A stretch of 45,192 nt of DNA from the NCBI GenBank assembly GCA_036395195.1, contig DASWDP010000009.1:1-45192 (forward strand), in the 5' to 3' direction. Origin of the DNA: Gemmatimonadales bacterium. Its GTDB lineage: Bacteria > Gemmatimonadota > Gemmatimonadetes > Gemmatimonadales > GWC2-71-9. Positions 26,672 through 42,618 of the stretch are shown here, one piece after another. The notes under the pieces are model-generated. The model saw only the letters and a list, made by a program, of their open reading frames with translations. It was not told the origin of the DNA and searched no databases. Positions within the stretch are counted from its first letter, which is position 1. Each line of letters begins with the position of its first letter. The position numbers and the translations under genes are program-made.

Positions 26672-27060
26672 CCCGGGTGGGGGCGGGGGGGGCCACCACG
26701 CCCGCCGAGGAGCGGCTCATCGCGCTCGCCGCCGAGGCAGCCCGGGGGCCCGTACGCGACGGGCTGTTCGCCCTGTGGCTCGTGGTGCGCGTCGCGGAGG
26801 CGCTGCTCCCGCCGCGGCCGGTATCGGGCAAGAATCACCGCCGCCGCCTCCAGGCGCTGGAGGCGCGGCTCGCGAGCCTCGCGCTCCCCGCCCCCCTCAA
26901 GCGCGCCGTCGCCGCGGCGCGGCAGCACCTCGAGGCCGGGACGCCCGCTGCGGCCGCCCTGGTGCTCTCCCAGCTCGTGGCTCCGGCCCGGGACGTGCTC
27001 GGCCCCGAGGCGGGGGACGCCGTGGTCGTTGCCGCCCGCTCCGCCCGCATACATCTATAA
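26668..27060 (+). CDS. Hypothetical protein (Ala/Leu/Arg-rich, helical)
   Basis: 130 aa. The GTG start overlaps the GT9 stop (GTGA). GC3 is high throughout. I recognise no family motif. Confidence 0.5.
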   Translation: MTRVGAGGATTPAEERLIALAAEAARGPVRDGLFALWLVVRVAEALLPPRPVSGKNHRRRLQALEARLASLALPAPLKRAVAAARQHLEAGTPAAAALVLSQLVAPARDVLGPEAGDAVVVAARSARIHL

Positions 27061-28430: not shown

Positions 28431-29186
28431 GTGCCCATGGCCGGCCACAGTAAATGGAAGCAGATCAAGCGGAAGAAGGCCGTCACCGACGCGCGGCGCG
28501 GCGCGCTGTTCACCAAGCTGATCCGCGAGATCACGATCGCCGCCAAGCAGGGCGGCGGCGATCCCGCGGGCAACGCCCGGCTCCGCACCGCCATCGACGC
28601 CGCCAAGGCGGAGAACATGCCGCTCGACAACATCGAGCGCGCCATCAAGAAGGGGACGGGCGAGCTGGCGGGCGTGACGTACGAAGAAGTCACCTACGAG
28701 GCGTACGGGCCCGGCGGCGCGGCCCTCCTCATCGAAGCGACTACCGACAACCCGAACCGCACCGTCGCGGAGATTCGCCACGTCTTCCAGCGCCACGGCG
28801 GCAACCTCGGCGCCGCGAACTCCGTGGTGTGGATGTTCGACCGCAAGGCCCAGATCACCGTGGACGCGACCCGTGCCGACGAGGACACCGTCATGGAGGC
28901 GGCGCTCGATGCCGGAGCGGACGATATGGCGCGCGACGGCGACGTCTTTCTGATCACCGGACCCGCGGGCCAGCTGCATCAGATCACCGAGCGGCTGAAG
29001 GCCAAGAAGATCGCGGTCCAGACGGCCGAGATCGCCCTGATCCCCAAGAGCACGGTGAAGGTAGACGGGAAGGACGCGAAGCACCTGCTCGCCCTGATCG
29101 AAGCGCTGGAAGAGATGGACGACGTCGCGAAGGTATCCTCGAACTTCGACATCGACGCCGAGGCGTTGGCGGCGGCGACGGCATAG
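28431..29186 (+). CDS. yebC: YebC/PmpR family DNA-binding transcriptional regulator
   Basis: It reads MAGHSKWKQIKRKKAVTDARRGALFTKLIREI... A GAGG lies 5 nt upstream of the ATG at 28431. The alternative start is 28437 (MAGHSKW). Confidence 0.92.
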   Translation: MPMAGHSKWKQIKRKKAVTDARRGALFTKLIREITIAAKQGGGDPAGNARLRTAIDAAKAENMPLDNIERAIKKGTGELAGVTYEEVTYEAYGPGGAALLIEATTDNPNRTVAEIRHVFQRHGGNLGAANSVVWMFDRKAQITVDATRADEDTVMEAALDAGADDMARDGDVFLITGPAGQLHQITERLKAKKIAVQTAEIALIPKSTVKVDGKDAKHLLALIEALEEMDDVAKVSSNFDIDAEALAAATA

Positions 29187-29187
29187 C

Positions 29188-29670
29188 GTGAAGGTGCTGG
29201 GCGTCGACCCGGGCACGGCGGTCACCGGCTACGGCGTGATCGACACCGGGAACGGAGTGGGGACGCCCGGGATGGGCCGGTTGATCGAGTGCGGCGTCAT
29301 CCGGTTCGAGCGCGGCAGCGCCCTCCCCCGGCGCCTGCACGAGCTGCACGCGCACATCGCCGATCTCATCGCCCGCCACCATCCCTCCGCGCTCGCCCTG
29401 GAAAACGCCTTCTACCACAAGAACGCGCGCACGACGCTCGTGCTGGGCCACGCGCGCGGCGTAGTGCTGCTCGCGGCCCAGCAGGCGGGCCTCGAGATCG
29501 CGGAGTATCCCCCCGCCACCGTGAAGAAGACGGTGACCGGCGCGGGCGGCGCCCCCAAGGCCCAGGTCGGCGCCGTCGTGGCGCGGCTGCTCAAGCTCAC
29601 GCACGCGCCGACGCCGGCGGATGCCGCCGACGGCGTGGCCGTGGCGCTCACGTACATCCTCCGCACGTGA
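29188..29670 (+). CDS. ruvC: Crossover junction endodeoxyribonuclease RuvC
   Basis: 160 aa with a GTG start. It has VLGVDPGTAVTGYGVI and the catalytic acidic residues. Confidence 0.92.
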   Translation: MKVLGVDPGTAVTGYGVIDTGNGVGTPGMGRLIECGVIRFERGSALPRRLHELHAHIADLIARHHPSALALENAFYHKNARTTLVLGHARGVVLLAAQQAGLEIAEYPPATVKKTVTGAGGAPKAQVGAVVARLLKLTHAPTPADAADGVAVALTYILRT

Positions 29671-30275
29671 TCGCCCAGGTCTCGGGCCGCCTGACGGCGA
29701 AGCAGGGCGATCGCGTGATGGTCCAGACCGCGGGCGGCGTCGGCTACGAGATCGTCGTGCCGCTGGGCGTGATGGGGCGCCTCCCGCCGGTCGGCGAGGC
29801 GGTGAGCCTCGCCACCGAGCTCGTCGTGCGCGAGGACGGCTGGGCGCTCTACGGATTCACCGAGGAGGCGGAGCGGCGCTTGTTCCAGCGCCTGATCGGC
29901 GTGAGCGGCGTAGGCCCGAAGATCGCGATCGCGCTACTATCGGCGCTCGGCGCGGAACGCGGCGCGCGGGCGCTCAAGGAGCGCAACATCGGGCTGCTCG
30001 CTTCGGTGAGCGGCATCGGCAAGAAGACCGCCGAGCGGCTGGCGCTTGAACTGGCCGATAAGCTGGGCGAGTTTGAAGCTGCCGCCGGCGCCGCGACACC
30101 GGCCGACGGCGCCGCGGAAGCGGCGCTCCGGGCGCTGGAGCAGCTCGGGTACGGGACGGCGGAGGCGGACCGGGCGCTGCGCCAGGTGCTCGCGGCCGAC
30201 GGCGGGGAGAGTGGGAGAGGCGGAGACCCCGAGACCCTGGTCCGCCGGGCGCTGCAACTTCTCACCCACGGATGA
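29667..30275 (+). CDS. ruvA: Holliday junction branch migration complex subunit RuvA
   Basis: 202 aa from a GTG at 29667 (GTGA overlap with ruvC). It has VIAQVSGRL..., GVGYEI and HhH motifs GVSGVGPKIA / GIGKKTAERL. Confidence 0.9.
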   Translation: MIAQVSGRLTAKQGDRVMVQTAGGVGYEIVVPLGVMGRLPPVGEAVSLATELVVREDGWALYGFTEEAERRLFQRLIGVSGVGPKIAIALLSALGAERGARALKERNIGLLASVSGIGKKTAERLALELADKLGEFEAAAGAATPADGAAEAALRALEQLGYGTAEADRALRQVLAADGGESGRGGDPETLVRRALQLLTHG

Positions 30276-30514
30276 CGATGACGACCGCTGAGTGGATCTG
30301 CACCCGCTGCGGGTCGACCAACCGGATCCTCGTGCCGGACGGCGCGACGCGGGCGGCGGACGAGTGCCTCACCTGCCACACGCGGCACGCGCTCGAGGTC
30401 GATGCGCGGCCGGTGCGGTGGCGCGCCACTTCCCAGGCTAAAGCCTGGGCTCGGCACGGCACTGTCCTTAAGGACAGTGTTTCGCCGAGCCCACCCTTCA
30501 GGGTGGGGACGTGA
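30272..30514 (+). CDS. Small zinc-ribbon-like protein (CxxC-N18-CxxC); the 3' third reads through a triple-hairpin element
   Basis: 80 aa with ATGA overlap to ruvA and GTGA overlap to ruvB. The first ~50 codons have high GC3 and carry CTRC...CLTC. The last ~28 codons have poor GC3 and coincide with three stem-loops. Confidence 0.45.
30432..30507 (+). other. Three consecutive stem-loops (structured element) immediately 5' of the ruvB start
   Basis: CCCAGGC-TAAA-GCCTGGG lies at 30432-30449. GGCTCGGC (30448-55) pairs with GCCGAGCC (30484-91) and encloses the perfect 20-nt palindrome CACTGTCCTTAAGGACAGTG (30461-80). CCCACCC-TTCA-GGGTGGG lies at 30490-30507. Confidence 0.75.
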
Positions 30515-31548
30515 CGCGGGCCCGCACGCAGATCACCACCCCCGAAGCCCTGCCCGAAGAGCGCAGCGCCGACGCGGCGCTCCGCCCCTCCCGGCTCGAC
30601 GAGTTCGTCGGCCAGGCGAAGGTGAAAGAGTCGCTCCAGATCGCCATCGACGCGGCGAAGCAGCGCGGCGAGCCCCTCGACCACGCGCTGTTCTTCGGCC
30701 CCCCGGGCCTCGGCAAGACCACGCTCGCCCTGCTCATGGCGAAGGAGCTGGGCGTCGGCATCCGGACCACGTCCGGGCCCGTGCTCGAGCGCCCCGGCGA
30801 CCTGGTGGGCATGCTCACGTCGCTCAAGGCGGGCGACATCCTCTTCATCGACGAGGTGCACCGGCTCCGGCCCGCGCTCGAGGAGTTTCTCTACCCCGCG
30901 ATGGAGGAGTACCGGGTGGACGTGCGCATCGCCGAGGGCCCGCACGGCCAGACGATCCCGATGGCGCTCGAGCGCTTCACGTTGATCGGGGCGACCACGC
31001 GGTTCGGCCTCCTCACGCCGCCCATGCGCGCGCGCTTCGGGCTGGTCGAGCGGCTCTCTTACTACCCGCCCGACGACCTCGCGCAGATCCTGGCCCGCTC
31101 GGCCGGCATCCTCGACGTGCCGGCCGACGCGGCGGGGATCGCGGAGCTCGCGCGCCGCAGCCGGGGCACGCCGCGCGTCGCCAACCGGCTGCTCAAACGG
31201 GTGCGCGACTACGCTCAGGTCCGCGCCGGCGGCAAGATCACCGCCCAGGTGGCGGGCGAAGCGCTCAAGCGGCTCGACGTGGACGAATTCGGGCTCGACG
31301 ACATGGACGGGCGCATCCTGAAGACCATCATCGAGCAGTTCGACGGCGGCCCCGTGGGACTCGGCACCATCGCGGCGGCCGTGGGCGAAGACCCGGGGAC
31401 GCTCGAGGAGGTGTACGAGCCGTTCCTCATGCAGCAGGGCTTCCTCGCGCGCACCGCCCGCGGCCGCTGCGCCACGGGGTCCGCGTACCGGCATTTCGGG
31501 TTTACTCCCCCTAAGAGCGCTGAACAGCCGACGATGTTTGACAGCTAG
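30511..31548 (+). CDS. ruvB: Holliday junction DNA helicase RuvB
   Basis: 345 aa. It has [12 protein letters not shown], Walker [10 protein letters not shown] and FIDEVHRL. Confidence 0.95.
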
Positions 31549-31550
31549 CC

Positions 31551-31630
31551 AATTGCGGATCTCGGATTGCGGATTGCGGATTGAAGGCGCGACCGTCGAA
31601 TCCGCAATCCGAAATCCACAATCCGCAATT
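31551..31630. repeat. Heptamer-repeat palindrome, GATTGCG type, filling the ruvB-queA spacer
   Basis: The left arm is AATTGCG GATCTCG GATTGCG GATTGCG GATTGAA (31551-85). The right arm is AATCCGC AATCCGA AATCCAC AATCCGC AATT (31599-630). Pairing covers 32 positions with 4 mismatches, with a 16-nt loop. Confidence 0.92.
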
Positions 31631-31636
31631 CTCCGC

Positions 31637-32668
31637 GTGCGCTACCGAACCGCAGACTTCGACTACACCCTGCCAGCCGAGCTGATTGCTCAGGAACCGC
31701 TCCCCGACCGCGCGGCGAGCCGCCTGCTCGTCCTCGAGCGGGCGAACGGGCGCGTCCGCCACGCGCGCTTCCCGGACCTCCTCGAGCTGATCGCGCCGCA
31801 AGACGTACTCGTCCTCAACGTGTCGCGGGTAATCCCGGCGCGACTGCACGGGAGACGGGAGACGGGAGCCGCGGCGGAGATCCTGCTCGTCCGCGAGCTG
31901 CCCGACGGGAGCTGGCTCGCGATGGGGCGCCCCGGCGGGAAACTCAAGCCTGGACGGCGCGTGACCTTCGGCGACGACAGCGCGGTGGAGATCGTCGAGA
32001 TGCTGGGCGGCGGGCTGCGACGGGTGCGTTTCGTCGGGCCGCTCGATGCCCGGGCGACGCTCGCCACGTACGGCGCGGTCCCGCTGCCCCCGTATATCCG
32101 CCGCGCCCCCCGACCCGAGGACCGCGAGCGCTACCAGACGGTGTACGCCGCGCACGACGGCAGCGTCGCCGCGCCGACGGCGGGGCTGCATTTCACCCCC
32201 GAGCTGCTCGCCCGGCTCCGCGCGACGGGCGCGGCGACGGCCGAGCTCGATCTCCACGTCGGCCCGGGCACCTTCAAGCCCGTGGAAACGGACGACCTGG
32301 CGCACCACACGATGCACGCCGAAGCGTACGCGGTGGGCGAGGACGCGGCGGCACTCATTAACGCGAGACGGGAAGCGGGAGGCCGCGTCTGGGCGGTGGG
32401 GACCACGGTGGTGCGGACGCTCGAGACGTGCGCCGACGAGCGCGGCCGGATCCGCGCGGGCGCCGGGGAGACGCGGGCGTTCATTTATCCGCCGTACCCG
32501 TTCCGCGCCCTCGACCGCCTGCTCACCAATTTTCACCTGCCGCGCTCGACGCTGCTAATGTTGGTGTGCGCCTTCGGGGGATATGAGCACGTGATGGGGG
32601 CGTATCGGGAGGCGATTGCGGACGGATACCGGTTCTATTCGTATGGCGATGCGATGGCGATCATCTGA
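31637..32668 (+). CDS. queA: S-adenosylmethionine:tRNA ribosyltransferase-isomerase QueA
   Basis: From the GTG at 31637 it reads (M)RYRTADFDYTLPAELIAQEP, which aligns with the QueA N-terminus of E. coli (MRVTDFSFELPESLIA). The ORF-track TTG at 31538 only reads through the upstream repeat. Confidence 0.9.
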   Translation: MRYRTADFDYTLPAELIAQEPLPDRAASRLLVLERANGRVRHARFPDLLELIAPQDVLVLNVSRVIPARLHGRRETGAAAEILLVRELPDGSWLAMGRPGGKLKPGRRVTFGDDSAVEIVEMLGGGLRRVRFVGPLDARATLATYGAVPLPPYIRRAPRPEDRERYQTVYAAHDGSVAAPTAGLHFTPELLARLRATGAATAELDLHVGPGTFKPVETDDLAHHTMHAEAYAVGEDAAALINARREAGGRVWAVGTTVVRTLETCADERGRIRAGAGETRAFIYPPYPFRALDRLLTNFHLPRSTLLMLVCAFGGYEHVMGAYREAIADGYRFYSYGDAMAII

Positions 32669-32745
32669 TTTCGGATTGCGGATTGTGGATTGCGGATTGG
32701 CAGGTCGACCTTCGAATCCGCAATCCGAAATCCGCAATCCGCAAT
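32667..32745. repeat. Heptamer-repeat palindrome, GATTGCG type, filling the queA-tgt spacer
   Basis: The left arm is GATTTCG GATTGCG GATTGTG GATTGCG GATTGGC (32667-701). The right arm is AATCCGC AATCCGA AATCCGC AATCCGC AAT (32715-45). Unit and spacer core (GACC.TCGAATCC) match those of 31551-31630. Confidence 0.92.
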
Positions 32746-32752
32746 AGCGCCC

Positions 32753-33934
32753 GTGTTCGAGTTCACCATCGAAGCGACGTCCGGCGCGGCCCGCACCGGC
32801 ACCCTCACTCTGCCCCACGGCACCGTCGAGACGCCGGTGTTCATGCCGGTGGGCACGCAGGGGACCGTGCGCGCGCTCTCGCCCGGCGACCTGCGCGCGG
32901 CGGGCGCGGAGCTGGTGCTCGCGAACACCTACCACCTGCACGTGCGCCCGGGCGAGCAGGTGGTCGAGAAGCTCGGGCGGCTGCACCGGTTCATGGGCTG
33001 GGACCGCCCCCTGCTCACCGATTCGGGCGGCTTCCAGGTGTTCTCGCTCGCGGGGTTGCGGCGGGTGGACGAGGACGGCGTCGAGTTCCAGAGCCATGTG
33101 GACGGGAGCCGCCGCACGCTCACGCCGGAGCGGGCCACGGAGATCCAGTGGACCCTGGGCGCCGACATCGCGATGGCGTTCGATCACGTGGCGCCGGGGG
33201 GCGCGGATGAAGGCACCGCACGCGACGCCCTGGAGCGGACGCTGCGGTGGCTGGAGCGGTGCGCCAAGAGGCATCGGGGGCTGATGGAAGGTCGGAAGGT
33301 TGGAACGTTGGAAGGCGGTTCCGTCCAACCTTCCAACCTTCCAACCTTCCCCCAGACTCTCTGGCCCATCCTGCAAGGCGGCACCCATCTCCAGCTTCGG
33401 ACCGAGGGTCTCCGCCGCATCCTCGAGCTCGGCTCCTGGACCGGCCTCGCCATCGGCGGGCTCTCCGTCGGCGAGCCCAAGCCGGTGATGTATGAGATGC
33501 TCGAGCGGCTGGAGCCCGGGCTTCCCGCGCCGCTGCCGCGTTATCTTATGGGTGTCGGGTTCCCCGAGGACCTGGTGGCGGCGGTGGAGCGCGGGGTGGA
33601 CCTGTTCGACTGCGTTGCGCCGACGCGCAACGGGCGCAACGGCTCCGCGTTCACGCCCGACGGCCCGGTGAACATCCGCAACGCCGAGCATCGTGAGGAC
33701 GCCCGGCCGCTCGACGAGGCCTGCGACTGCGAGACGTGCACCACGTTCTCGCGCGGCTATCTCCGCCACCTGTTCATGGCAGAGGAGCTGCTGGGACTCC
33801 GGCTCCTGTCGTTGCACAACGTCCGCTACCTGATCCGGCTCGCCGCAGCCATGCGGGCCGCGATCCGGCGGAACGCCTTCGGCGCATGGGCCGAGGAGTG
33901 GCGCCGCCGCTACCTGCAACCGAGATCCGCATGA
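32753..33934 (+). CDS. tgt: tRNA-guanine transglycosylase Tgt (with an in-frame repeat-encoded insertion)
   Basis: From the GTG at 32753 it reads (M)FEFTIEATSGAARTGTL..TPVFMPVGT. It has GGLSVGE, YLMGVG and the zinc motif CDCETC...H. The ORF-track start at 32690 lies in the upstream repeat. Confidence 0.9.
   Translation: MFEFTIEATSGAARTGTLTLPHGTVETPVFMPVGTQGTVRALSPGDLRAAGAELVLANTYHLHVRPGEQVVEKLGRLHRFMGWDRPLLTDSGGFQVFSLAGLRRVDEDGVEFQSHVDGSRRTLTPERATEIQWTLGADIAMAFDHVAPGGADEGTARDALERTLRWLERCAKRHRGLMEGRKVGTLEGGSVQPSNLPTFPQTLWPILQGGTHLQLRTEGLRRILELGSWTGLAIGGLSVGEPKPVMYEMLERLEPGLPAPLPRYLMGVGFPEDLVAAVERGVDLFDCVAPTRNGRNGSAFTPDGPVNIRNAEHREDARPLDEACDCETCTTFSRGYLRHLFMAEELLGLRLLSLHNVRYLIRLAAAMRAAIRRNAFGAWAEEWRRRYLQPRSA
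33286..33350. repeat. Octamer-repeat palindrome (GGAAGGTY / CCAACCTT) lying in frame inside tgt
   Basis: GGAAGGTC GGAAGGTT GGAACGTT GGAAGGCG occupy 33286-317. CCAACCTT x3 plus CC occupy 33325-350. The loop is about 9 nt. It translates as EGRKVGTLEGGSVQPSNLPTFP. Confidence 0.9.
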
Positions 33935-34266
33935 CCGCGCACGGACTGTACGCCTTGTGGTTCGCCCCGTCGGGCCAGAACGCCGGGGGCGGGCTCGCCG
34001 TTTTCATGATCCAGATCGCGGCCCTGATCGCGATCTTCTACTTCATGCTGATCCGCCCGCAGCGCCGGCAGCAAGAGCGGCACCGCCAGCTGCTGGCCTC
34101 GCTGCAGCGCGGGGATCGCGTCGTGACCTCGGGCGGGATCGTCGGCGAGGTGGTCCACCTCAAGGACGACGAGGTCACCGTGAAGAGCGGCGAGTCGCGC
34201 TTCGTCGTGCTGCGCGCGAACATCGCGAACATCCTCAACCGCTCGGTCGAAGCCAAGCCGCAGTGA
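33931..34266 (+). CDS. yajC: Preprotein translocase subunit YajC
   Basis: 111 aa with an ATGA overlap with tgt. It has one TM segment and the motifs LIRPQRRQ and GDRVVTSGGIVGEV. Confidence 0.88.
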   Translation: MTAHGLYALWFAPSGQNAGGGLAVFMIQIAALIAIFYFMLIRPQRRQQERHRQLLASLQRGDRVVTSGGIVGEVVHLKDDEVTVKSGESRFVVLRANIANILNRSVEAKPQ

Positions 34267-34811
34267 CGATCCGGAAGCTCCACCTGCTCGGCTCCCCCGT
34301 GCTGCGGCAGCGCGCGACCCCCGTCGGCGCCGTGGACGACGCCGTGCGGCAGCTGGTGGACGACCTGTTCGAGACGATGCGGGCGGCGAAAGGGGTGGGG
34401 CTCGCGGCGAATCAGGTCGGCGTGGCACGCCGCGTGGCCGTGGTCGACGTCGGCGAGGACGACCCGCCGCCGCTCGTGCTCATCAATCCCCGCATCGTCC
34501 ACGCGAGCGACGTCACCGAGACCGCCGAGGAAGGCTGCCTCTCGATCCCCGACATCTACGGGGAGGTCGAGCGGCCGCTCGCCGTGACGGTGGAGGCGCT
34601 CGACCGCGACGGCCGGCCGTACCGCGTCGAGGTCGCGGGGTTCAAGGCCCGCGCCGTGCAGCACGAGATCGACCACCTCGACGGCGTGCTGTTCCTCGAC
34701 CACCTGAGCGCGGTGAAGCGGGGGCTGCTGGTGGCGAAGTGGAAGAAGTCCCGCAAGGGGAAGTCCGGCTACGTCAAAGAGGTCACGCCGGAGCCGGCGG
34801 GCGAGCTGTAG
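34263..34811 (+). CDS. def: Peptide deformylase
   Basis: 182 aa from a GTG at 34263 (GTGA overlap). It has the three deformylase motifs GVGLAANQ, EGCLS and HEIDH. Confidence 0.92.
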   Translation: MTIRKLHLLGSPVLRQRATPVGAVDDAVRQLVDDLFETMRAAKGVGLAANQVGVARRVAVVDVGEDDPPPLVLINPRIVHASDVTETAEEGCLSIPDIYGEVERPLAVTVEALDRDGRPYRVEVAGFKARAVQHEIDHLDGVLFLDHLSAVKRGLLVAKWKKSRKGKSGYVKEVTPEPAGEL

Positions 34812-35735
34812 GTGCGCGTCGTCTTCTTCGGCACGCCCGGGTTCGCGGTCCCGTCGCTCGAAGCCCTGCTCGGCGAAGGGTTCGACGTGCTCGCCGCCGT
34901 CACCCAGCCCGACAAGCCGCAGGGCCGCTCCCGCTCCACCGCCGTCCCGCCGCCCGTCAAGGTGGCCGCCGCGGCGGAGGACGTGCCGGTGCTCCAGCCC
35001 GCCAGCCCGAATGACCCGCGGTTCCTCGAGCAGCTGCGCGCCCTCGCGCCCGACGTCGGCGTCGTGGTGGCGTACGGCCATATCCTCAAGCCCGAGCTGC
35101 TCGCGATCCCGCGGCGGGGCATGATCAACGTGCACCCCTCGCTCCTCCCCGATTTGCGCGGCGCCGCCCCGATCGAGTGGGCGATCATCAACGGTCTCGA
35201 GAAGACGGGCGTCACCATCATGCAGATGGACGCCGGCATGGACACGGGTCCGATCCTGCACCAACTGCCCCACCACATCGACCCGGAGGTCACGGCGGGC
35301 GAGCTGTCGGAGCATCTCGCCGAGATGGGCGCCCAGGCGCTGGTCGAGGCCCTGGCGCTGCTCGAGCAGGACGGGCTGAAGGCGCGGCCCCAGGACTCGA
35401 GCCGCGCCACGTACGCCCCCAAGCTCACGCGCGAGACCGCGCGGATTCGCTGGACCGATCCGGCCGACAAGATCGCGCGCGCGATCCGCGGGCTCGACCC
35501 GAAGCCGGGGGCGTGGACCGAGCTGGACGGCCGCGAGGTGAAGCTGTTCGACCCGCGCGTGGTGGAGGCCGACGGAGCACCGGGCGACATACGGACGACG
35601 GACAAAGAACTACGGATCACGACGGGGCGCGGAGCGGTGGCGGTGGACGAAGTCCAGCCCGCCGGAAAGTCGCGCATACCCGCCGCGGACTGGATCCGCG
35701 GACGCGGGGTGCGGGAGGGTCAGCGGTTCACGTGA
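34812..35735 (+). CDS. fmt: Methionyl-tRNA formyltransferase
   Basis: 307 aa, with its GTG directly after the def stop. Motifs are VVFFGTPGFAVPSL, NVHPSLLP and MQMD.GMDTGPI. Confidence 0.93.
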   Translation: MRVVFFGTPGFAVPSLEALLGEGFDVLAAVTQPDKPQGRSRSTAVPPPVKVAAAAEDVPVLQPASPNDPRFLEQLRALAPDVGVVVAYGHILKPELLAIPRRGMINVHPSLLPDLRGAAPIEWAIINGLEKTGVTIMQMDAGMDTGPILHQLPHHIDPEVTAGELSEHLAEMGAQALVEALALLEQDGLKARPQDSSRATYAPKLTRETARIRWTDPADKIARAIRGLDPKPGAWTELDGREVKLFDPRVVEADGAPGDIRTTDKELRITTGRGAVAVDEVQPAGKSRIPAADWIRGRGVREGQRFT

Positions 35736-36352
35736 GGCTACCGCTGCCGCGCCTGCACGCGATCACCGACGAGCGGATCGCCCGGCGGGCGGACCTGGAC
35801 GACGTCGCCCGCGAGCTCGCGGCGGGCGGCGGAGCCGAGATCGCCGTCCACGCGCGCGGCCGGTCGCTCACCGGTCTGGAGCACTACGAACTCGCTACCC
35901 GTCTATCCGCCTATCCGCCTACCCGTCTATTTGTCAACGACCGCCTGGACGTCGCCCTCGCCGCGGGCGCCGCGGGCGTGCAGCTCACCCACACGAGCCT
36001 CGATCCGGCCGACGCGCGGCGCCTCGACACGAACTGGTGGATCGGCATGTCGGTCCACGGGCTGCGCGAGGCGACGGCCGCACGAGACGCGGGCGCCGAC
36101 TATCTTTTGGTAGGCCCCATGTATCCCACCGCCACACACCCGCAGGGCGAGCCGCTGGGCGTGGCGGGGGGGGGGCTCGCGGCGATCGTCCGCCTGGGGC
36201 TCCCGGTGATCGCCATCGGGGGGGTGACGCCCGAGCGGGTGCCGGAGCTCAGGGCCGCCGGTGCGTACGGCGTGGCCGCCATCCGCGCCCTGTGGGACGC
36301 GGGCGACCCCGGTGCCGCCGCGCGGCGGATGGTGGGGGAGCTGGAGACATGA
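35732..36352 (+). CDS. thiE: Thiamine-phosphate synthase ThiE
   Basis: 206 aa from a GTG at 35732 (GTGA overlap with fmt). Motifs are LHAITD, LFVNDRLDVA, YLLVGPMYPT and IAIGGV. Confidence 0.88.
   Translation: MRLPLPRLHAITDERIARRADLDDVARELAAGGGAEIAVHARGRSLTGLEHYELATRLSAYPPTRLFVNDRLDVALAAGAAGVQLTHTSLDPADARRLDTNWWIGMSVHGLREATAARDAGADYLLVGPMYPTATHPQGEPLGVAGGGLAAIVRLGLPVIAIGGVTPERVPELRAAGAYGVAAIRALWDAGDPGAAARRMVGELET
35896..35935. repeat. Direct tandem 8-mer repeat (TAYCCGYC x4 plus TATTTGTC) inside thiE
   Basis: The units are TACCCGTC TATCCGCC TATCCGCC TACCCGTC TATTTGTC. ACCCGTCTA recurs exactly 24 nt apart, giving TRL...TRL in the protein. Confidence 0.85.
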
Positions 36353-36561
36353 CCGAAACGATCGACATCGTCGTGAACGGGGAGCGGCGCGCGGTGGTGC
36401 GCGGCGCCACGCTGCTCGAGCTGCTGCGTTCGCTCGAGCTCGACCCGCGCGCCGTGGTCGTGGAGCACAACCGCGCGATCGTGCGCCGCCCGCAGCTGGG
36501 CGACGTGACCGTCGGCCCGGGCGACGCGATCGAGCTGGTGCATTTCGTCGGAGGGGGTTGA
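36349..36561 (+). CDS. thiS: Sulfur carrier protein ThiS
   Basis: 70 aa with an ATGA overlap with thiE. The ubiquitin-like protein ends in the diglycine ...HFVGGG. Confidence 0.88.
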   Translation: MTETIDIVVNGERRAVVRGATLLELLRSLELDPRAVVVEHNRAIVRRPQLGDVTVGPGDAIELVHFVGGG

Positions 36562-36564
36562 AGG

Positions 36565-37362
36565 ATGACGACGGCCGTTGAGACGGTCCGCGACACGCCG
36601 TTCACTGTCGGCGGGCGCACGTTCCAGTCGCGCCTCATGATCGGGACCGGGAAGTACCGCGACAACGACACGATGGTCCGCGCCATCGAGGCCTCCGGTG
36701 CCGACATCGTGACGGTGGCGGTGCGGCGCGTGGACCTGGACCGCCGCAAAGAGTCCGGGATCCTGTACCATCTCGATCCGAAGAGGTACTTCCTGCTCGC
36801 CAACACGGCGGGCTGCCACACCGCGGACGACGCCGTGCGCTACGCGCGTCTCGCGCGCGAGGCGGGGTTCAACGAGTTCATCAAGCTTGAGGTGATCGGC
36901 GACGAAGAGACGCTGCTCCCCGACGTCCAGGGGTTGCTCGCGGCGGCGCAGACGCTCGTGCGGGAAGGCTTCAGGGTGCTCGCCTACACGAACGAGGACC
37001 TCGTGACCGCGTTGCGTCTCGAAGACGCCGGCTGCGCGGCGGTGATGCCGCTCGCGTCGCCCATCGGCAGCGGGCTGGGGCTCCTCAACCCCTACAGCGT
37101 GCGGACGATCAAGCACCGCCTGAAGGTGCCCGTGGTGGTGGACGCTGGGGTGGGCACCGCGTCCGATGCGTGCCTCACGCTGGAGCAGGGCGTGGACGGC
37201 ATCCTGATGAACACGGCGGTCGCCGCCGCGCGGGACCCCGTGGCCATGGCGCACGCGATGCGGCTCGCGGTCGAGGCCGGACGGGCCGCCTATCTCGCCG
37301 GCCGGATGCCGCGGCGCGAGGTGGCCGTCCCCTCCTCGCCGCTCGAAGGGATGCTGGATTAA
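36565..37362 (+). CDS. thiG: Thiazole synthase ThiG
   Basis: 265 aa. Motifs are FQSRLMIGTGKY, IKLEVIGD and VVVDAGVGT. Confidence 0.93.
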   Translation: MTTAVETVRDTPFTVGGRTFQSRLMIGTGKYRDNDTMVRAIEASGADIVTVAVRRVDLDRRKESGILYHLDPKRYFLLANTAGCHTADDAVRYARLAREAGFNEFIKLEVIGDEETLLPDVQGLLAAAQTLVREGFRVLAYTNEDLVTALRLEDAGCAAVMPLASPIGSGLGLLNPYSVRTIKHRLKVPVVVDAGVGTASDACLTLEQGVDGILMNTAVAAARDPVAMAHAMRLAVEAGRAAYLAGRMPRREVAVPSSPLEGMLD

Positions 37363-37390
37363 GGACGCGACCGCCGCCCGGCGCGCGGCA

Positions 37391-38650
37391 TTGCAGATCC
37401 TCCACGCGGTGCGCGACGGCGCCACGTTCCAGGCGGCGCGCGACCGCGTCCTCGGCGACCTGGCCGAGCGCGACCGCCGGCTCGCCTACGAGCTCGCCGC
37501 CGGCGTGCTGCGCCGGCAGGCGGAGCTCGACCGGGCGCTCGCGCTCCGTACCACCGACCCCCGACTCCACGATGTCCTGCGCCTCGGCGCCTACCAGCTG
37601 CGCGCGCTCACACGCGTTCCGGCGTACGCCGCCGTGTCCACGAGCGTCGCGCTCGCGCGGGAGACAGAGGGAGAGTCCGCGGCGCGGTTCGTCAACCAGG
37701 CGCTGCGGAAGCTGCAGCGGGGCTCGGGGATCGGGGCTCGGGATTCGGGCACTACTCACCCCCGCTGGCTCCTCGAGCGATGGCGTCGCCAGTTCGGGCT
37801 CGAGGGAACCGAAGGGCTCATCGCGTGGAACGACAGGAAATCGCCGCTCACCCTGCAACCCGTTCGCTGGAGCGCAGCCGAGCTCGGGGCCCGGCTCCAA
37901 GAGGCGGGCTTCGGTGTAACAGAAGCGCCGTTTGGGGCGGGGTTGCGTGTGAACCCGAGCCCCGAGTCCCGAGTCCCGAGCCCCTCGCAGCTGCCGGGCT
38001 TCGAGGAGGGCGCCTTCATCGTCCAGGACCCCGCCCACGCACTGGTATGCCGGTACGCCGCGGTGCCGCCGGGAGCCCTCGTGTACGACGCCTGCGCCGC
38101 CCCGGGCGGTAAGGCGGTGATGCTCGAGCGGCTCGGGGCCCGCGTGGTGGCCGGGGACACGCGGCGCGAGCGGCTCGCCCGGCTGGTCGCGACGGCGCGC
38201 CGCGCGGGAGTGGCGATTCGTGTCGCCCTCACCGATCTTCTGTCGGCGCCATTCGCGGCGGGCGCCCTGGACGCCGTCCTCGTCGACGCCCCGTGCTCGG
38301 CGACCGGCACTATGGCGCGGCATCCGGATGCCCGTTGGCGCGTGACGGCGCGAACGATCGCGCGGGCCGCCGAGCGGCAGCGCGCGCTGATCACTGCGGC
38401 CGCGCGGCTCGTCACGCGCGGCGGTCACCTAATCTACGCGACCTGCTCGCTCGAGCCCGAGGAGAACGGCGACATCGTGAACGAGTTCCTGGCGCGCCAT
38501 CCCGAGTTCGCCCGCGACCCCGCCCCTCCCCCCGAGGCCCCCGGCGCGGTGCCCGCGGAGCTGCTGACGGCGGAGGGCGACTTCCAGGCGCTGCCGCAGC
38601 GCCACGGGACGGGCGGCGCCTACGCGGCCCGCCTCGTGCGGAGCCGGTGA
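37391..38650 (+). CDS. rsmB: 16S rRNA (cytosine967-C5)-methyltransferase RsmB/Sun
   Basis: It has a NusB-like N-domain, then FIVQD, DACAAPGGK, DAPCSATG and ATCSLEPEEN. The true start is uncertain: the TTG at 37391 truncates the first conserved helix (see finding). Confidence 0.85.
   Translation: MQILHAVRDGATFQAARDRVLGDLAERDRRLAYELAAGVLRRQAELDRALALRTTDPRLHDVLRLGAYQLRALTRVPAYAAVSTSVALARETEGESAARFVNQALRKLQRGSGIGARDSGTTHPRWLLERWRRQFGLEGTEGLIAWNDRKSPLTLQPVRWSAAELGARLQEAGFGVTEAPFGAGLRVNPSPESRVPSPSQLPGFEEGAFIVQDPAHALVCRYAAVPPGALVYDACAAPGGKAVMLERLGARVVAGDTRRERLARLVATARRAGVAIRVALTDLLSAPFAAGALDAVLVDAPCSATGTMARHPDARWRVTARTIARAAERQRALITAAARLVTRGGHLIYATCSLEPEENGDIVNEFLARHPEFARDPAPPPEAPGAVPAELLTAEGDFQALPQRHGTGGAYAARLVRSR
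37719..37750. repeat. Heptamer repeat arm, GGGGCTC type, in frame inside rsmB
   Basis: The arm reads GGGGCTC GGGGATC GGGGCTC GGGATTC GGGC and encodes RGSGIGARDSG. Confidence 0.85.
37951..37984. repeat. Inverted heptamer repeat arm, GAGYCCC type, in frame inside rsmB, 200 nt from its partner
   Basis: The arm reads GAACCC GAGCCCC GAGTCCC GAGTCCC GAGCCCC and encodes NPSPESRVPSPS. It is the reverse complement of the units at 37719-37750 and 6053-6094. Confidence 0.85.
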
Positions 38651-39420
38651 TGCGGATTCGCCGGCACTACGCACCGCTCGCCGCGTGGCAGATCCCAGGA
38701 CTAGGGGGTCCGCACGACGCGCGGCGCTGGGGCTTCGCGCTCGGAGGGGCGGTGCTCGCCGGTTACCTCACGGCGTACCTCCTGCTCTTCCCGGCGCCGA
38801 TCCTCCGCGGGCACCAGGTCGTCCCGCGCGTGCTCGGGCTGACGCTGCAGGAAGCGGCGGCGCAGATCCGGGAGGGGGGCCTCGAAGTCCAGGACGGGGG
38901 CTCGGAAGCGCATCCCACGGCGCCGCAGGGGACGATCATCTGGCAGGACCCGCCGCCCGGGGTGAGCGCCCCGGCAGGGCTCCGGGTGACCCTGGTGTCG
39001 AGCGAGGGCCCGCCCAAGATTCCGGTACCGGACGTGGCGGGCCTCGACGGGGACCTGGCGGGGCGGCTGATCGCGGCGGCGGGGCTGACGGTGTCACAGG
39101 TGGAATCGGTGCAGGCCGCCGCGCCGCGCGGCATCGCCATGGTGACGCGGCCGCCCGCGACGAGCGTGCTCGCGCCCGGGGCGCCCGTGACCGTGGTGGT
39201 GAGCCGGGGTGCGCCGACCATCCCGGTGCCCGATCTGCTCGGGATGTCGCAGGCGGACGCCCGCACCCGGCTCGAGCTCGACGGCCTGGAGCTCGGCACG
39301 GTGACGCGGCGGCGCACGTCCGACGCGAACCCGGGCACGGTGGTGGCGCAGCGTCCCGGCGCCGGGACGCTCGCGGCGCCCGGCACCGTCGTGGACATCG
39401 TCGTGGCCCGGAGCCCATGA
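38650..39420 (+). CDS. Membrane-anchored PASTA-domain protein (three PASTA repeats, no kinase or PBP domain)
   Basis: 256 aa with an N-terminal TM segment (ALGGAVLAGYLTAYLLLF). Three ~65-aa repeats follow, each beginning VP(R/D)(V/L).G and containing a G..V motif. The start ATG overlaps the rsmB stop. Confidence 0.8.
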   Translation: MRIRRHYAPLAAWQIPGLGGPHDARRWGFALGGAVLAGYLTAYLLLFPAPILRGHQVVPRVLGLTLQEAAAQIREGGLEVQDGGSEAHPTAPQGTIIWQDPPPGVSAPAGLRVTLVSSEGPPKIPVPDVAGLDGDLAGRLIAAAGLTVSQVESVQAAAPRGIAMVTRPPATSVLAPGAPVTVVVSRGAPTIPVPDLLGMSQADARTRLELDGLELGTVTRRRTSDANPGTVVAQRPGAGTLAAPGTVVDIVVARSP

Positions 39421-40097
39421 TCAAGAACGGGGAAGGCATCCGCATCGCGCCCAGCGTCCTGTCGGCGGACCTGACGAAGCTCGGCGAGCAAGTGCGCCAA
39501 GTGCTGGCGGCGGGCGCGGACTGGCTGCACGTGGACGTGATGGACGGCCGCTTTGTGCCGAACCTCACCTTCGGGGCCAACATGATCGAAGCGCTGCGCA
39601 CGCTCACGGACAAGCCGATCGACGTGCACCTGATGGTGGTCGAGCCGGAGCGCTACCTCGAGCCGTTCGCGGCCGCGGGAGCGTCGGTGTTCACGTTCCA
39701 CCCCGAAGCGACGCTGCACGTCCAACGGCAGCTCGCCGCCGCCCGCCAGCGCGGGATGCTGGCCGGCCTCGCGCTCAACCCGGGCTCGCCGCTCGCGCTC
39801 GCCGAGGAAGTGGTGGCGGACGTGGACCTGCTGCTGATCATGACGGTGAACCCCGGCTTCGGTGGGCAGACGTACCTGCCCGCCTCGGACGACAAGATCC
39901 GGCGGGCGCGGCAGCTCCTGGCGGCGCGCGGCTCGCGCGCGTTCCTGGAGGTGGACGGCGGCATCACGCCACAGACCATCGCCGCGGCGCACGCCGCCGG
40001 CGCGGACACCTTCGTCGCCGGCAACGCGGTGTTCGCGAGCGCTGACCCCGCCCGCGAGGTGCAGGAGCTGCGGCGCCGGTGTCTGGTGACGGTATGA
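39417..40097 (+). CDS. rpe: Ribulose-phosphate 3-epimerase
   Basis: 226 aa with an ATGA overlap. Motifs are IAPSVLSAD, HVDVMDG.FVPN, MTVNPGFGGQ and EVDGG. Confidence 0.93.
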   Translation: MIKNGEGIRIAPSVLSADLTKLGEQVRQVLAAGADWLHVDVMDGRFVPNLTFGANMIEALRTLTDKPIDVHLMVVEPERYLEPFAAAGASVFTFHPEATLHVQRQLAAARQRGMLAGLALNPGSPLALAEEVVADVDLLLIMTVNPGFGGQTYLPASDDKIRRARQLLAARGSRAFLEVDGGITPQTIAAAHAAGADTFVAGNAVFASADPAREVQELRRRCLVTV

Positions 40098-40636
40098 GCC
40101 AGCGGTGGTCGGTCGCGATCGGCATCGTGACGGCGCTCGTGTTCGGCGCGGCGCTGGCGATCAAGATCCGGCCGCAGATGGATCTCATCGGCGTCGGCTC
40201 GCGGGCCCCGGAGTTCCGGGCCACGGACGTGCGCACCGGCCGCCCCGTCGCCCGCGCCGACTACCGCGGCAAGGTGGTCCTGCTGAACGTGTGGGCGACG
40301 TGGTGCCAGCCGTGCCGCGTCGAAATGCCGTCGATGGAGCGCCTGCACCACCGCCTGGGTGGGACCGACTTCAAGGTGGTCGCGGTGAGCATCGACGAGC
40401 AGGGCGATTCGGTGGTCATGGCGTTCGCCACGGAGCTCGGGCTCTCCTTCGACGTCCTGCACGATCAGGCCGGAACCATCAAGCAGACCTACCAGGCTAC
40501 GGGGGTGCCCGAGAGCTGGGTGATCGACCGGGACGGCGTGATCGTCAAGAAGATCATCGGCCCGTCGGAGTGGGACGGCCCGGTGCACGAAACCCTTATC
40601 CGGCGGCTGCTGGCGGAGCGTTCCGGTGGCGAGTAG
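40094..40636 (+). CDS. TlpA/ResA-family thiol:disulfide oxidoreductase (membrane-anchored thioredoxin fold)
   Basis: About 180 aa with an ATGA overlap with rpe. It has an N-terminal TM segment and the active site WATWCQPC. Confidence 0.85.
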   Translation: MSQRWSVAIGIVTALVFGAALAIKIRPQMDLIGVGSRAPEFRATDVRTGRPVARADYRGKVVLLNVWATWCQPCRVEMPSMERLHHRLGGTDFKVVAVSIDEQGDSVVMAFATELGLSFDVLHDQAGTIKQTYQATGVPESWVIDRDGVIVKKIIGPSEWDGPVHETLIRRLLAERSGGE

Positions 40637-41555
40637 CATCGGGCAGCTGGTCGTGCGCAACTGGCCGATCAAGCTCGCGGCCCTGTTCTTCGCGGTCATG
40701 CTGTACGTGGCGGTCGCGGCGCAACAGCCGCTGACACAGACCTTCCCCATGCGGCTGGCCATCGCGATCCCGCCCGGCCGGAGCGTCAAGCAGCAGCCGG
40801 CGGGAGTGACCGTCGTGGTCACCGGCAAGGGGACTGAGATCCTGAAGCTCCGCTCCTTTCCGCGCGTGATCCGCAAGGTCGTCCCGGACACCTTCTCCGC
40901 GTCGGTGTGGCACCTGCACCTGCAGCCATCCGACGTGGACGTGCCGAAGGGAACGGACGTGTTGGTCGCGGACATCGTCCCACGCGACATCGACGTCGTC
41001 ATGGACACGGCGGCCCGGAAGGACGTGAAGATCGTTCCCCTGGTGAAGGTCGAGGCCGAGTCCGGGTACGTGCTGCGGGGCATCTCGATCGTGCCGAGCG
41101 TGGCGCACCTGGTGGGGCCGGAAAAGAGCCTCGCGCGCATCGAGTCGGTCACGACGCTGCCGGCGGTCGTGTCGAGCGTCAACGGCCCGTTCTTCCGCAC
41201 CGTGCCGATCGACACGACTCCGCTCGGCCTCGTGCGCATCGCGCCGAAGGAGGTCCGGGTGGCCGGCGAGGTTGCGGCCATCATCGAGCGCTCGATCCCG
41301 GGCGTTCCGATCACGACCGCGGCCTCGGGCTTCACGGGCTTCCTGCTGTCGCCGGAGCGCGTGGTGGTGTCGGTGCGCGGGCCCGAGTCGAAGGTCAACG
41401 CCCTCACCAGGGACAGCCTGCGCGTCGTCGCCCACCTCGTCGGGAAGGCGGGGTCGGGGGGCTACGCGCGGCTCACCGTCACCGCGCCGCCGGGGATCGT
41501 CGCGCGCGTGGTGCCCGACTCCGTCGCGTTGAAGCGCAAGACCGGCCGTGGCTGA
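40626..41555 (+). CDS. YbbR-domain-containing protein (CdaR-like)
   Basis: 309 aa from a GTG start. The N-terminal anchor is NWPIKLAALFFAVMLYVAV, followed by repeated beta-rich YbbR-type modules. Confidence 0.65.
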   Translation: MASSIGQLVVRNWPIKLAALFFAVMLYVAVAAQQPLTQTFPMRLAIAIPPGRSVKQQPAGVTVVVTGKGTEILKLRSFPRVIRKVVPDTFSASVWHLHLQPSDVDVPKGTDVLVADIVPRDIDVVMDTAARKDVKIVPLVKVEAESGYVLRGISIVPSVAHLVGPEKSLARIESVTTLPAVVSSVNGPFFRTVPIDTTPLGLVRIAPKEVRVAGEVAAIIERSIPGVPITTAASGFTGFLLSPERVVVSVRGPESKVNALTRDSLRVVAHLVGKAGSGGYARLTVTAPPGIVARVVPDSVALKRKTGRG

Positions 41556-42618
41556 GGTCGTGCTGGGGATCGAGACGTCGTGCGACGAGACGTCCGCCGC
41601 CGTGCTCGTCGGCGAGCGCGCGCGCCCCGAGCTCGCGGGCCTCGTGATCCTGTCGCAGGACGTGCACCGGGTGTTCGGCGGCGTGGTGCCGGAGCTCGCG
41701 AGCCGCGCGCACCTCACCGCGCTGCCCGCGGTGGTGGACCGTGCGCTCGCCGAGGCGGGGCTCTCCTGGAGCGCGGTGGACGCGGTCGCCGTCACCCAGG
41801 GGCCCGGGCTCGTGGGCGCCCTGCTCGTCGGCGTCGTGTACGCGAAGGCGCTCGCCTACGCGGGCGGCCGGGAGCTGATCGGCGTGCACCACATGGAGGG
41901 ACACCTGTTCGCCCCGGCCGTCGAGGATCCCGAGCTCGCGCCCCCGTTCGTCGCGCTGCTCGTGTCGGGCGGGCACACGCTGCTGCTCGACGTCCCCGCC
42001 TGGGGCCGCTACCGGCTCCTGGGTCAGACGCGCGACGACGCCGCCGGCGAAGCGTTCGACAAGGTGGCGACGCTGCTCGGGCTCGGGTATCCCGGCGGGC
42101 CCGCGATCGAGCGCCTTGCCCGGGAGGGCGATCCGGCGCGCTTCAGCTTCCCGCGCCCGATGCGCGACGAGGGATTCGAGTTCTCGTTCTCCGGGCTCAA
42201 GACCGCGGTGCTGCGCGCCGTCCGCGCCAGCGACGATCTCGAGCGCGACCGGCCTCATCTCGCCCGCGCGTTCCAGGATGCCGTCCTCGACGTGCTCGTG
42301 ACCAAGCTGGAGCGCGCCGTGCGCGCCACCGGCTATCGCACCGCCGTGCTCGGCGGCGGCGTGGCGTGCAGCCGCACGCTCGCCGCCCTCGCCGCCGAGC
42401 GGCTGGCGGGGAAGGGGGGGGCGCTGGCGCGCGTCGCCGTCGCGAGCCCGCGGCTCAACGCCGACAACGCCGCGATGATCGCACGCGCCGGCTGGTACCG
42501 CCTCGGCCTCGGCGAACGGAGCGACTGGACGCTCGACGCGCGGGCCGACCTTCCGCTCCCAGGCCTCGAGCCACTGGTCATTCCGCAATCCGCAATCCAC
42601 AATCCGAAATCCCAATGA
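41548..42618 (+). CDS. tsaD: tRNA N6-adenosine threonylcarbamoyltransferase TsaD
   Basis: 356 aa. Motifs are VLGIETSCDETS, VTQGPGLVGALLVG, HHMEGH and GGGVACS. The last ~13 codons are encoded by a heptamer repeat. Confidence 0.92.
   Translation: MAEVVLGIETSCDETSAAVLVGERARPELAGLVILSQDVHRVFGGVVPELASRAHLTALPAVVDRALAEAGLSWSAVDAVAVTQGPGLVGALLVGVVYAKALAYAGGRELIGVHHMEGHLFAPAVEDPELAPPFVALLVSGGHTLLLDVPAWGRYRLLGQTRDDAAGEAFDKVATLLGLGYPGGPAIERLAREGDPARFSFPRPMRDEGFEFSFSGLKTAVLRAVRASDDLERDRPHLARAFQDAVLDVLVTKLERAVRATGYRTAVLGGGVACSRTLAALAAERLAGKGGALARVAVASPRLNADNAAMIARAGWYRLGLGERSDWTLDARADLPLPGLEPLVIPQSAIHNPKSQ
42580..42614. repeat. Half element (one arm only) of the AATCCGC heptamer type at the tsaD/lgt junction
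   Basis: The arm reads ATTCCGC AATCCGC AATCCAC AATCCGA AATCCCA and ends at the lgt ATG (42615). I see no GATTGCG-type partner arm nearby. Confidence 0.85.

Follow-up and report, generated by a model that had tools for sequence, protein, structure and literature searches.

Inverted heptamer arrays at operon junctions of a Gemmatimonadetes genome share their arms with the flanks of PF05635 genes

Two heptamer hairpins in the ruvB-queA-tgt operon

The ruvB, queA and tgt genes of a Gemmatimonadetes soil metagenome-assembled genome (MAG) are separated by two hairpins built of tandem heptamers, here called elements A and B. They lie in a stretch of 45,192 nt with 71% GC (the window), in which no rRNA was found and for which a gene map based on the GC content of third codon positions (GC3) revealed very tight gene packing. 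The three genes form part of a plus-strand operon of 17 kb (28431-45081) with almost all junctions between -4 and +3 nt, and A and B are its only gaps longer than 60 nt. The closest relatives of the encoded QueA (80-83% identity) come from Gemmatimonadetes MAGs of grassland soil.

Element A is located between the ruvB stop codon (31546-31548) and the queA GTG start at 31637. Tandem Repeats Finder returned two period-7 arrays in it, at 31552-31583 (4.6 copies) and 31599-31629 (4.4 copies), and an inverted-repeat search gave arms of 32 nt (31551-31582 and 31599-31630) with 88% complementarity. Element B overlaps the queA stop codon TGA (32666-32668) and is followed by the tgt GTG start at 32753; its arrays are at 32667-32699 (4.7 copies) and 32715-32745 (4.4 copies), and its arms have 39 nt (32668-32706 and 32707-32745, 87% complementary). 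The arms of an orthologue of B, at the comparison locus L139, were 98% identical. A preliminary description of this DNA had reported the pair as bracketing queA, and both programs recovered it. The long hairpin proposed there for each element was also obtained when the elements were folded as single-stranded DNA, with z-scores from 200 shuffles (Table 1). Across the window six hairpins with stems of 26-35 bp gave z-scores of -4.6 to -7.3, and none of the 200 shuffles folded equally well. We also observed that queA and tgt share a reading frame and that the 84-nt element between them (32666-32755) is stop-free in that frame, so that a ribosome passing the queA TGA would produce a fusion of QueA, 28 residues and Tgt. 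No frame of the GATTGCG unit or of its complement includes a stop codon.

Arrays of this kind were strongly enriched. A separate detector (period 6-12, at least three copies) counted 18 in the window, whereas 50 dinucleotide shuffles averaged 0.46 and reached 3 at most; with periods 7 and 8 the counts were 14 and 0.16. The same plan, tandem 7- or 8-mers followed by a short loop and inverted tandem 7- or 8-mers, recurred in the window with several units. Every other array listed before was recovered at essentially the same coordinates, including the direct arrays at 4896-4940, 35895-35930 and 42582-42616. For GGGGCTC at 37719-37984 the two arrays were confirmed (37718-37750 and 37954-37984), but not as a single hairpin, the arms being some 200-240 nt apart. 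An Rfam scan of the window gave no match at the gathering score; at E<=1 only sub-threshold, generic long-hairpin matches to eukaryotic microRNA-precursor models were returned.

The type pair is defined by its sequence as well as by its plan. Seventeen copies, drawn from both junctions, several species and unrelated metagenome contigs, aligned gap-free in a 31-16-31 layout (arm, loop and inverted arm, in nt). Each arm consists of four to five tandem GCGGAWT heptamers with the outer ends AATTGCGG...CCGCAATT, and A and B both fit this definition. In the alignment 88.2% of the cells were paired and 15 of the 31 pairs had changes on both sides. Doubly changed cells numbered 64 against 30.5 in shuffles, a value that none of 500 shuffles reached. 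Column pair 18/61 was unpaired in 16 of the 17 copies, a conserved mid-stem mismatch that stays in place through subfamily switches. Columns that covary correspond to positions two and three of every unit, so a switch of the unit (ATT, AAT, AAC, AGT) affects all units of both arms at once.

Within a subfamily, identity was 0.90-0.98 for the arms, 0.53-0.65 at four-fold degenerate sites and 0.44-0.75 for the loops, and it exceeded that of the four-fold sites in 47 of 55 pairs for the arms and in 13 of 55 for the loops. These values indicate that the arms are constrained or driven and that the loops are not. Two close loci, L004 and L005 (four-fold identity 0.83), yet carried different subfamilies at one site, with an arm identity of 0.74. 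The proposal that the elements are defined by architecture and not by sequence thus does not hold for the type pair, which belongs to a dispersed, sequence-defined family with a 31-16-31 layout, a shared mismatch and conserved arms. In sequence definition it behaves like the REP-type (repetitive extragenic palindromic) or MITE-type (miniature inverted-repeat transposable element) families from which it had been set apart.

No sense/antisense asymmetry was found in these hairpins. G.U pairs numbered 50 in the sense and 66 in the antisense strand, and the folding-energy difference was not significant (p = 0.15, n = 35). Selection on a sense-strand RNA was rejected on these grounds. Both orientations occurred, and the loop was found flipped. 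The flanks of 41 hairpins held no target-site duplication, conserved tag or tetranucleotide that was consistent across copies; TGA...TGA or TGA...TAG recurred at queA-tgt, but inconsistently.

Orthologous spacers were compared at 42 Gemmatimonadota loci with ruvB-queA-tgt, and the presence of the elements varied between species. In outgroups the ruvB-queA and queA-tgt junctions are overlaps (TAGTG or TGATG) or spacers of 1-18 nt. In the element-bearing subclade (QueA identity at least 68%) they hold heptamer hairpins, in spacers of 76-109 nt, which start at or on the stop codon. Presence varied among close relatives: L001 lacks element A, element B and the tgt insertion described below. One-unit or partial footprints of lost elements were seen at L001, L009, L011 and L013. 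After the ruvB stop codon of L001 comes GCAATCGCGG (L001:9991-10003), which resembles one leftover unit, and no evident canonical in-frame queA start lies nearby in this locus.

The same comparison covered two coding sites. At the tgt site an in-frame, stop-free hairpin was present in 13 species including that of the window, always with 8-mer units. These units differed by species (GGAAGGTT, GGCGGCAC, GTCGGACN, GATGGAAC, CGACGCCA, GACGGCTG and others), and both arms changed jointly. The rsmB arms likewise co-varied among species (GGGGCTC, GGGAGCM, GGGATGC, GGGACGG). The mean distance between units was 1.65 for the same site across genomes and 2.47 for different sites within one genome, while exact sharing of a unit between sites was enriched within genomes (10.8% vs 1.4%). 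Inheritance is therefore mainly vertical at each site, with some exchange between sites.

Heptamer arms around PF05635 genes

A metagenome scan with two GCGGATT units as the query matched at least 120 loci, of which 120 were analysed (GC 0.37-0.72). Among the loci listed, 94 had at least three units, and in 35 an inverted partner lay no more than 120 nt away. Many of these copies, on unrelated contigs, had the outer end AATTGCGG and an inner end, GGATTGAAG, in common. In high-GC copies the hairpin lay -2 to +10 nt from a stop codon and 1-109 nt from the next start, and in co-directional contexts it was closer to the stop in 8 cases and to the start in 1. No description of the repeat sequence itself was found in the literature searched.

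Among the matches listed for viral contigs, arrays of at least three units were found in 46 of 120 for GCGGATT and in 15 of 120, 2 of 45 and 18 of 120 for permuted units. Because the permuted control heptamers form arrays too, if less often, heptamer arrays as such are generic, and the listings are suggestive only as to GCGGATT being special among heptamers. Where PMC4692102 and PMC4679880 cite Mrazek 2007, over-representation of heptamer simple sequence repeats (SSRs) is given as general in bacteria. At L087, L113, L144, L180 and L186-L188 a GCGGATT array ran directly into an array of another, unrelated heptamer (CAACAAC, TTCGTAA, CCCTTGT, GAACTTT, AATGACA, GTGGCTG or CGTCCAA); arrays of different units therefore cluster.

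The preliminary description had overlooked a link to a protein family: GCGGAWT arms are characteristic flanks of genes for PF05635, the intervening sequence (IVS) protein, in many phyla. At five loci selected for their arrays (L117 and L120, then L115, L155 and L239) the arms bracketed a reading frame of about 120 aa, which Pfam identified as PF05635, '23S rRNA-intervening sequence protein' (E = 3e-15 and 1e-13). This is the S23p family, an Avd-like four-helix bundle. To remove the selection bias, a profile built from the array-selected proteins was used in a protein search with at least 8000 matches, which, where named, were called 'four helix bundle protein'. From these we fetched 12 loci, picked by protein and long contig only and with arrays ignored. 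All 12 (GC 0.37-0.63) carried (GCGGAWT)n upstream of the gene and the complement (AWTCCGC)n just past its stop codon. Unit densities per 100 nt were 3.08 for forward units upstream and 3.70 for reverse units downstream, compared with 0.25 and 0.18 in the background of the same loci. At L620, L699 and L702 the PF05635 gene lay between two complete hairpins, like queA in the window. The gene was co-directional inside housekeeping operons, for example between cheR and cheB, ligA and pmbA, or kaiB and a kinase gene. These results show a palindromic repeat family that is tied to PF05635 and whose arms are under constraint. No description of flanking arrays of PF05635 genes in general was found in the literature searched.

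A search of viral contigs for the four-helix-bundle gene with a single protein returned nothing, and a profile search returned five loci with the same plan and other units (GATTTTT/AAAAATC). The only relative in the PDB, 2RLD, has five chains in its entry. Chemotaxis operons (cheW/cheY/cheR/cheA ... cheB/cheR/cheW) held 4 of the 12 sampled PF05635 genes (L611, L614, L617 and L619), which may reflect a preferred context or a sampling effect. PF05635 proteins were called at varying lengths (138, 141 and 149 aa, compared with about 120; P0094 cluster and L120:1828-2361), and the called frames run into the flanking arrays, read as ...IADCGLRI... or ...NPQSAIRNPQ.... This read-through of the arrays leads to systematic mis-annotation of starts and stops in PF05635 genes. 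The 16-nt loop was also considered as a remnant of PF05635, but its apparent match to the C-terminal 'TAR' codons failed a shuffle test.

Relation to known elements and competing explanations

In their working the elements are most like a hybrid of IVS and REPIN, and those of the window fail the defining features of each known system that we compared. A 28-bp terminal stem, interrupted by a mismatch and a bulge, closes the IVS of Coxiella, which also contains a reading frame for S23p and tandem heptamers, three in number but variable between strains; RNase III cuts it mid-stem, and it is described as selfish and vertically inherited, its origin and mobility mechanism not being established (PMC4990558). 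The window elements resemble the 23S rRNA IVSs with S23p (Coxiella, Leptospira, Brucella) in the mismatch-bearing terminal stem (31 nt per arm, compared with 28 bp in Coxiella), in the tandem heptamers, in the associated family PF05635 and in being putatively selfish elements with vertical inheritance. They differ in that they lie in mRNA, on either side of queA and at the end of tsaD, and not in helix 25 or 45 of 23S rRNA. They also lack a reading frame in their 16-nt loops, and their arms consist wholly of GCGGAWT heptamers.

Xanthomonas genomes contain 70-75 convergent GGGAATC pairs each, 89-93% of them intergenic and near the end of the upstream open reading frame (ORF) (Rehm et al. 2015, PMC4692102). 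These arrays are mostly of about four units, can form stem-loops and lie at different genes in sister species, and the unit was read there as a G-quadruplex former (PMC4692102). Together with the Coxiella IVS heptamers (PMC4990558), they run against the implication of the preliminary description that paired inverted heptamer arrays were undescribed and that none occurred in high-GC genomes. A purely architectural, undescribed class is too strong a claim. The window shares with Xanthomonas a high-GC genome and inverted heptamer pairs close to ORF ends. Unlike the window, however, each Xanthomonas genome has one G-rich unit, and no in-frame coding insertions, orthologous-site comparison or PF05635 link were reported. 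When compared with the Xanthomonas unit (GGGANTN)n, the hairpin of GGGGCTC units at 6051-6138 agrees in layout and at positions 1-3 and 6 but differs at position 4, and the type unit GCGGATT does not fit. The cyanobacterial STRR (short tandemly repeated repetitive) sequences and the TAACTGA repeats of Beggiatoaceae are likewise intergenic tandem heptamers beside gene ends (PMC4679880, PMC4692102). Both (STRR1-3 units in the case of the cyanobacteria) form essentially direct arrays, with one inverted case in 170 TAACTGA sets, and the elements described here differ from both systems in host (Gemmatimonadota), in units and in their inverted arms.

REP sequences and REPINs form hairpins of 70-100 nt between genes, in genome-specific populations that persist vertically for long periods, with arms conserved presumably through a cognate protein. 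The type family is alike in its intergenic hairpins, in having sequences particular to each genome, in vertical persistence and in arms conserved beyond neutral sites. Unlike REPINs, it has no GTAG/CGTC tag (flanks of 41 hairpins), its arms are direct heptamer arrays and not mini-palindromes, and the associated gene encodes a four-helix-bundle protein; no RAYT or transposase was found among ten annotated proteins beside elements in 45 kb of the genome. The inverted repeats also differ from MITEs in lacking a flanking target-site duplication, and from intrinsic terminators in that A and B are followed by TTCTCCGCGTG and AGCGCCCGTG, with no U-tract; T-rich flanks occur at 10274-10357 only. The Rickettsia palindromic elements (RPEs) are 100-150-bp sequence families without tandem substructure, inserted in frame in housekeeping genes and translated. 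The coding hairpins of the window are similar as in-frame palindromes translated as extra loops of housekeeping proteins, but unlike RPEs the tgt site has kept an 8-nt period while its unit diverged across 13 species. Chi-site arrays, DNA uptake sequences, integron attC sites, telomerase-like templated synthesis and translational bypassing were also considered and dropped as fitting poorly.

We lean towards the reading that elements A and B, like the single arm in tsaD (42582-42616), belong to a dispersed palindromic family as copies without a gene and are miniature relatives of a selfish cassette of the IVS type, because the same arms bracket PF05635 in many phyla. Several points weigh against it. 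No PF05635 gene was found in the window or in 80 related loci, so a trans-acting partner in this genome is unproven, and the gene-less loops had no significant similarity to the interior of the cassette. Derivation by internal deletion would follow from the arms and their position alone, and the reverse history, in which the gene was inserted into existing hairpins, is equally possible. We know of no mobility mechanism for IVS or PF05635 elements, and the flanks offer no target-site duplication or conserved tag. A second process, local slippage, is suggested by the direct-only arrays. Signs of slippage were also seen at L041, where the unit repeated in (TGAACGG)4 contains the host queA stop codon, and at L153 and L184, where the two arms were homogenised independently of each other. 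GGGGCTC arrays showed no link to PF05635, and no such gene was present in two viral loci of about 50% GC (L670:8590-9025 and L691:9885-10262) in which inverted GGGGCTC arrays surround about 330 nt of AT-rich non-coding DNA. The GGGGCTC, AAGGTTGG, CGTCRTC and ACGTGYA families have the same architecture and evolutionary behaviour, but no tie to PF05635 was seen for them.

For such gene-less miniatures we propose the following course. As the compared loci show, elements persist only where a compact genome tolerates additional DNA, that is at once-overlapping stop/start junctions and in protein loops and linkers, where they are in frame and translated. Their inheritance is vertical at fixed sites over long periods, with occasional loss that leaves footprints and with subfamily replacement, and the arm sequence either stays near-constant or has its unit switched in a concerted, compensated fashion. 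The two-strand symmetry, the occurrence of both orientations and the flipping of the loop suggest that maintenance and spread would act at the DNA level. A sequence-specific partner would probably be needed, the candidate being a pentameric PF05635 protein, and replication slippage would set the copy number and homogenise each arm. In transcripts the stem of about 31 bp would be open to RNase III cleavage and would hold up 3' exonucleases; by analogy with the rRNA IVSs, element transcripts are probably RNase III substrates. Processing of the stem would uncouple the separated cistrons, which were ancestrally coupled in translation.

Each of the rival explanations accounts for part of the evidence. 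The arrays could be a neutral by-product of mutation, in which slippage amplifies local 7- and 8-mers and intrastrand template switching (quasi-palindrome correction) makes and keeps the inverted arm. Such an origin would fit the general excess of heptamer SSRs in bacteria, as far as Mrazek 2007 is cited for it in PMC4692102 and PMC4679880, and also the arrays formed by control heptamers in viral contigs, the direct-only arrays in coding DNA, the stop codon within the L041 unit, the separate homogenisation of arms at L153 and L184, and the lack of both strand asymmetry and target-site duplication. We nevertheless consider it unlikely. Slippage and template switching do not account for a fixed 31-16-31 layout with a mismatch at the same position in 16 of 17 copies, nor for outer and inner ends (AATTGCGG and GGATTGAAG) conserved in unrelated contigs. 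Arms that are 90-98% identical at a neutral divergence of 35-47%, next to loops that are free to change, are hard to square with neutrality, and one heptamer family extends over GC 0.37-0.72 and is tied to one gene family.

Conserved arms with compensatory changes would equally be expected of RNA stem-loops selected by the host, which terminate or attenuate transcription or protect the upstream mRNA like Escherichia coli REP sequences, the repeat substructure being incidental. The stop-proximal position (8 vs 1 co-directional cases) and the hairpin between convergent genes at 10274-10357, with its T-rich flanks, are in line with such a role. However, A and B have no U-tract, the closest relatives lack elements at the same junction (L001 is without A, B and the tgt insertion), homologous hairpins lie within the coding sequences of tgt and rsmB, and there is neither a sense/antisense G.U bias nor a fixed orientation relative to transcription. 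Host selection on RNA is in our view no likelier than a mutational origin. Mobile elements of the REP/REPIN or MITE type, mobilised by a RAYT (Y1) or DDE transposase whose gene lies elsewhere in the genome, would explain a dispersed family whose presence differs between species, the subfamily replacement between L004 and L005, and the within-genome sharing of exact units. They would not explain why target-site duplications, GTAG/CGTC tags and flanking tetranucleotides are all missing, why the arms are not themselves palindromic REP units, or why PF05635 and no transposase gene is what recurs beside the arrays. We regard this explanation as very unlikely.

An extension of the cassette reading, which we put forward as doubtful, is that the heptamer arms are recognition sites of a pentameric PF05635 ring, about five 7-nt units for five subunits. 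The arms with their PF05635 gene would then be an unrecognised autonomous selfish element across phyla, of which the rRNA IVSs are the subset that landed in rRNA. If so, gene-less miniatures would colonise operon junctions and protein loops, and the protein and the unit dialects (GCGGATT, GCGGAAT, GCGGAAC) would evolve together; this would account for the concerted, compensated switches. Relative to the literature searched, two findings appear to be new: the arms accompany PF05635 across phyla, and the insertions in tgt and rsmB evolve in frame with their period conserved. A cis element that travels with the gene offers a handle on the origin and mobility of IVSs and on the function of PF05635, questions that date back to about 1990. 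The tgt and rsmB sites further show that palindromic repeats can persist in frame inside essential genes, the period being kept as the units of both arms drift. Short-read assemblies are probably interrupted at such hairpins, and most PF05635 contigs among the at least 8000 matches are shorter than 2 kb. Start-codon calling is misled as well, because gene callers extend frames through the arrays.

Further arrays and structured spacers

The features of the window are collected in Table 1. The genes flanking them are ordinary housekeeping genes (argR, amidohydrolases, PBP1, aminotransferase, tsaD, lgt, thiE, rsmB, ruvB, queA and tgt).

Table 1. Arrays, hairpins and host genes in the window, with fold z-scores of the hairpins
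Feature	Coordinates	Strand	Fold z	Description
Host operon segment	30511-33934	+		ruvB 30511-31548, queA 31637-32668, tgt 32753-33934; synteny kept across Gemmatimonadota
Element A	31551-31630		-6.6	GATTGCG-family hairpin, 31-16-31, fills the ruvB-queA junction; DNA fold -31.9 kcal/mol
Element B	32667-32745		-7.3	GATTGCG-family hairpin, fills the queA-tgt junction
Single arm of type family	42582-42616			CCGCAAT units including CCACAAT and CCGAAAT variants; last codons of tsaD, translated
GGGGYTC heptamer hairpin	6051-6138		-7.1	Exactly fills the gap from the PBP1 stop (6136-6138, minus strand) to the amidohydrolase start (6050)
ACGTGYA hairpin	10274-10357		-4.6	Between convergent genes ending at 10289 and 10358; T-rich flanks; arms 76% complementary, weaker
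8-mer (GGAAGGTT) hairpin	33281-33355	+	-6.1	In-frame insertion in tgt, about 20 extra residues
rsmB arm 1, (CGGGGCT)n	37718-37750	+		Encodes the linker between NusB-like and ferredoxin-like domains
rsmB arm 2, (CCCGAGC)n	37954-37984	+		Complementary to arm 1; linker before the methyltransferase domain
CGTCRTC/ACGGATK heptamer hairpin	45082-45149		-5.9	Starts straight after the amidohydrolase stop (45079-45081)
(ACGGGAG)3 direct array	31848-31868	+		Inside queA; not in the earlier list
(CTATCCGC)4.5 direct 8-mer array	35895-35930	+		Inside thiE
10-mer direct array (GGCGGTAGAG on plus strand)	4896-4940	-		C-terminal coding region of the amidohydrolase gene 4860-6050

Not all of the arrays lie between genes; five of those listed earlier are coding: the tgt hairpin, the rsmB arms and the amidohydrolase, thiE and tsaD arrays. 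The earlier statement that arrays occupy nearly every intergenic gap holds roughly for the co-directional gaps, but not for the divergent gap 8302-8370 or the 235-nt gap before ruvB, in both of which an array of this kind is absent. The tgt insertion corresponds to a gapped region against the Zymomonas TGT, and rsmB arm 2 is an insertion of 21-24 nt relative to outgroups. The hairpin at 10274-10357 could act as a bidirectional terminator.

Direct arrays and single arms were also found at orthologous sites. The queA array had a drifting unit (ACGGGAA in L001, L003, L004, L005 and L012), the thiE array was present in L001, L008, L014 and L015, and arrays in the tsaD tail had genome-specific units in L006, L007 and L013.

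Structured spacers of a different kind were seen as well. The 235-nt ruvA-ruvB gap holds three adjacent stem-loops at 30428-30510 (DNA fold -29 kcal/mol, z -7.2) without tandem units. At L004 the queA-tgt spacer (L004:8853-8955) is an unrelated, GC-rich hairpin of 98 nt with no tandem units, folding at -75 kcal/mol as RNA, whereas in the closely related L005 the spacer measures 16 nt. In two lower-GC Gemmatimonadota (L028 and L030) a conserved, structured insert of 207 nt lies at ruvB-queA (-74 and -83 kcal/mol), closing with a T-run ahead of the ATG; it represents a further mobile or regulatory element at this junction. Lastly, a C-rich tract (CGCCCCCCC x2.8) at 20381-20405 and a G-rich tract (CGGGGGGGGG) at 26674-26693, both in coding regions, could be slippage-prone homopolymer runs.

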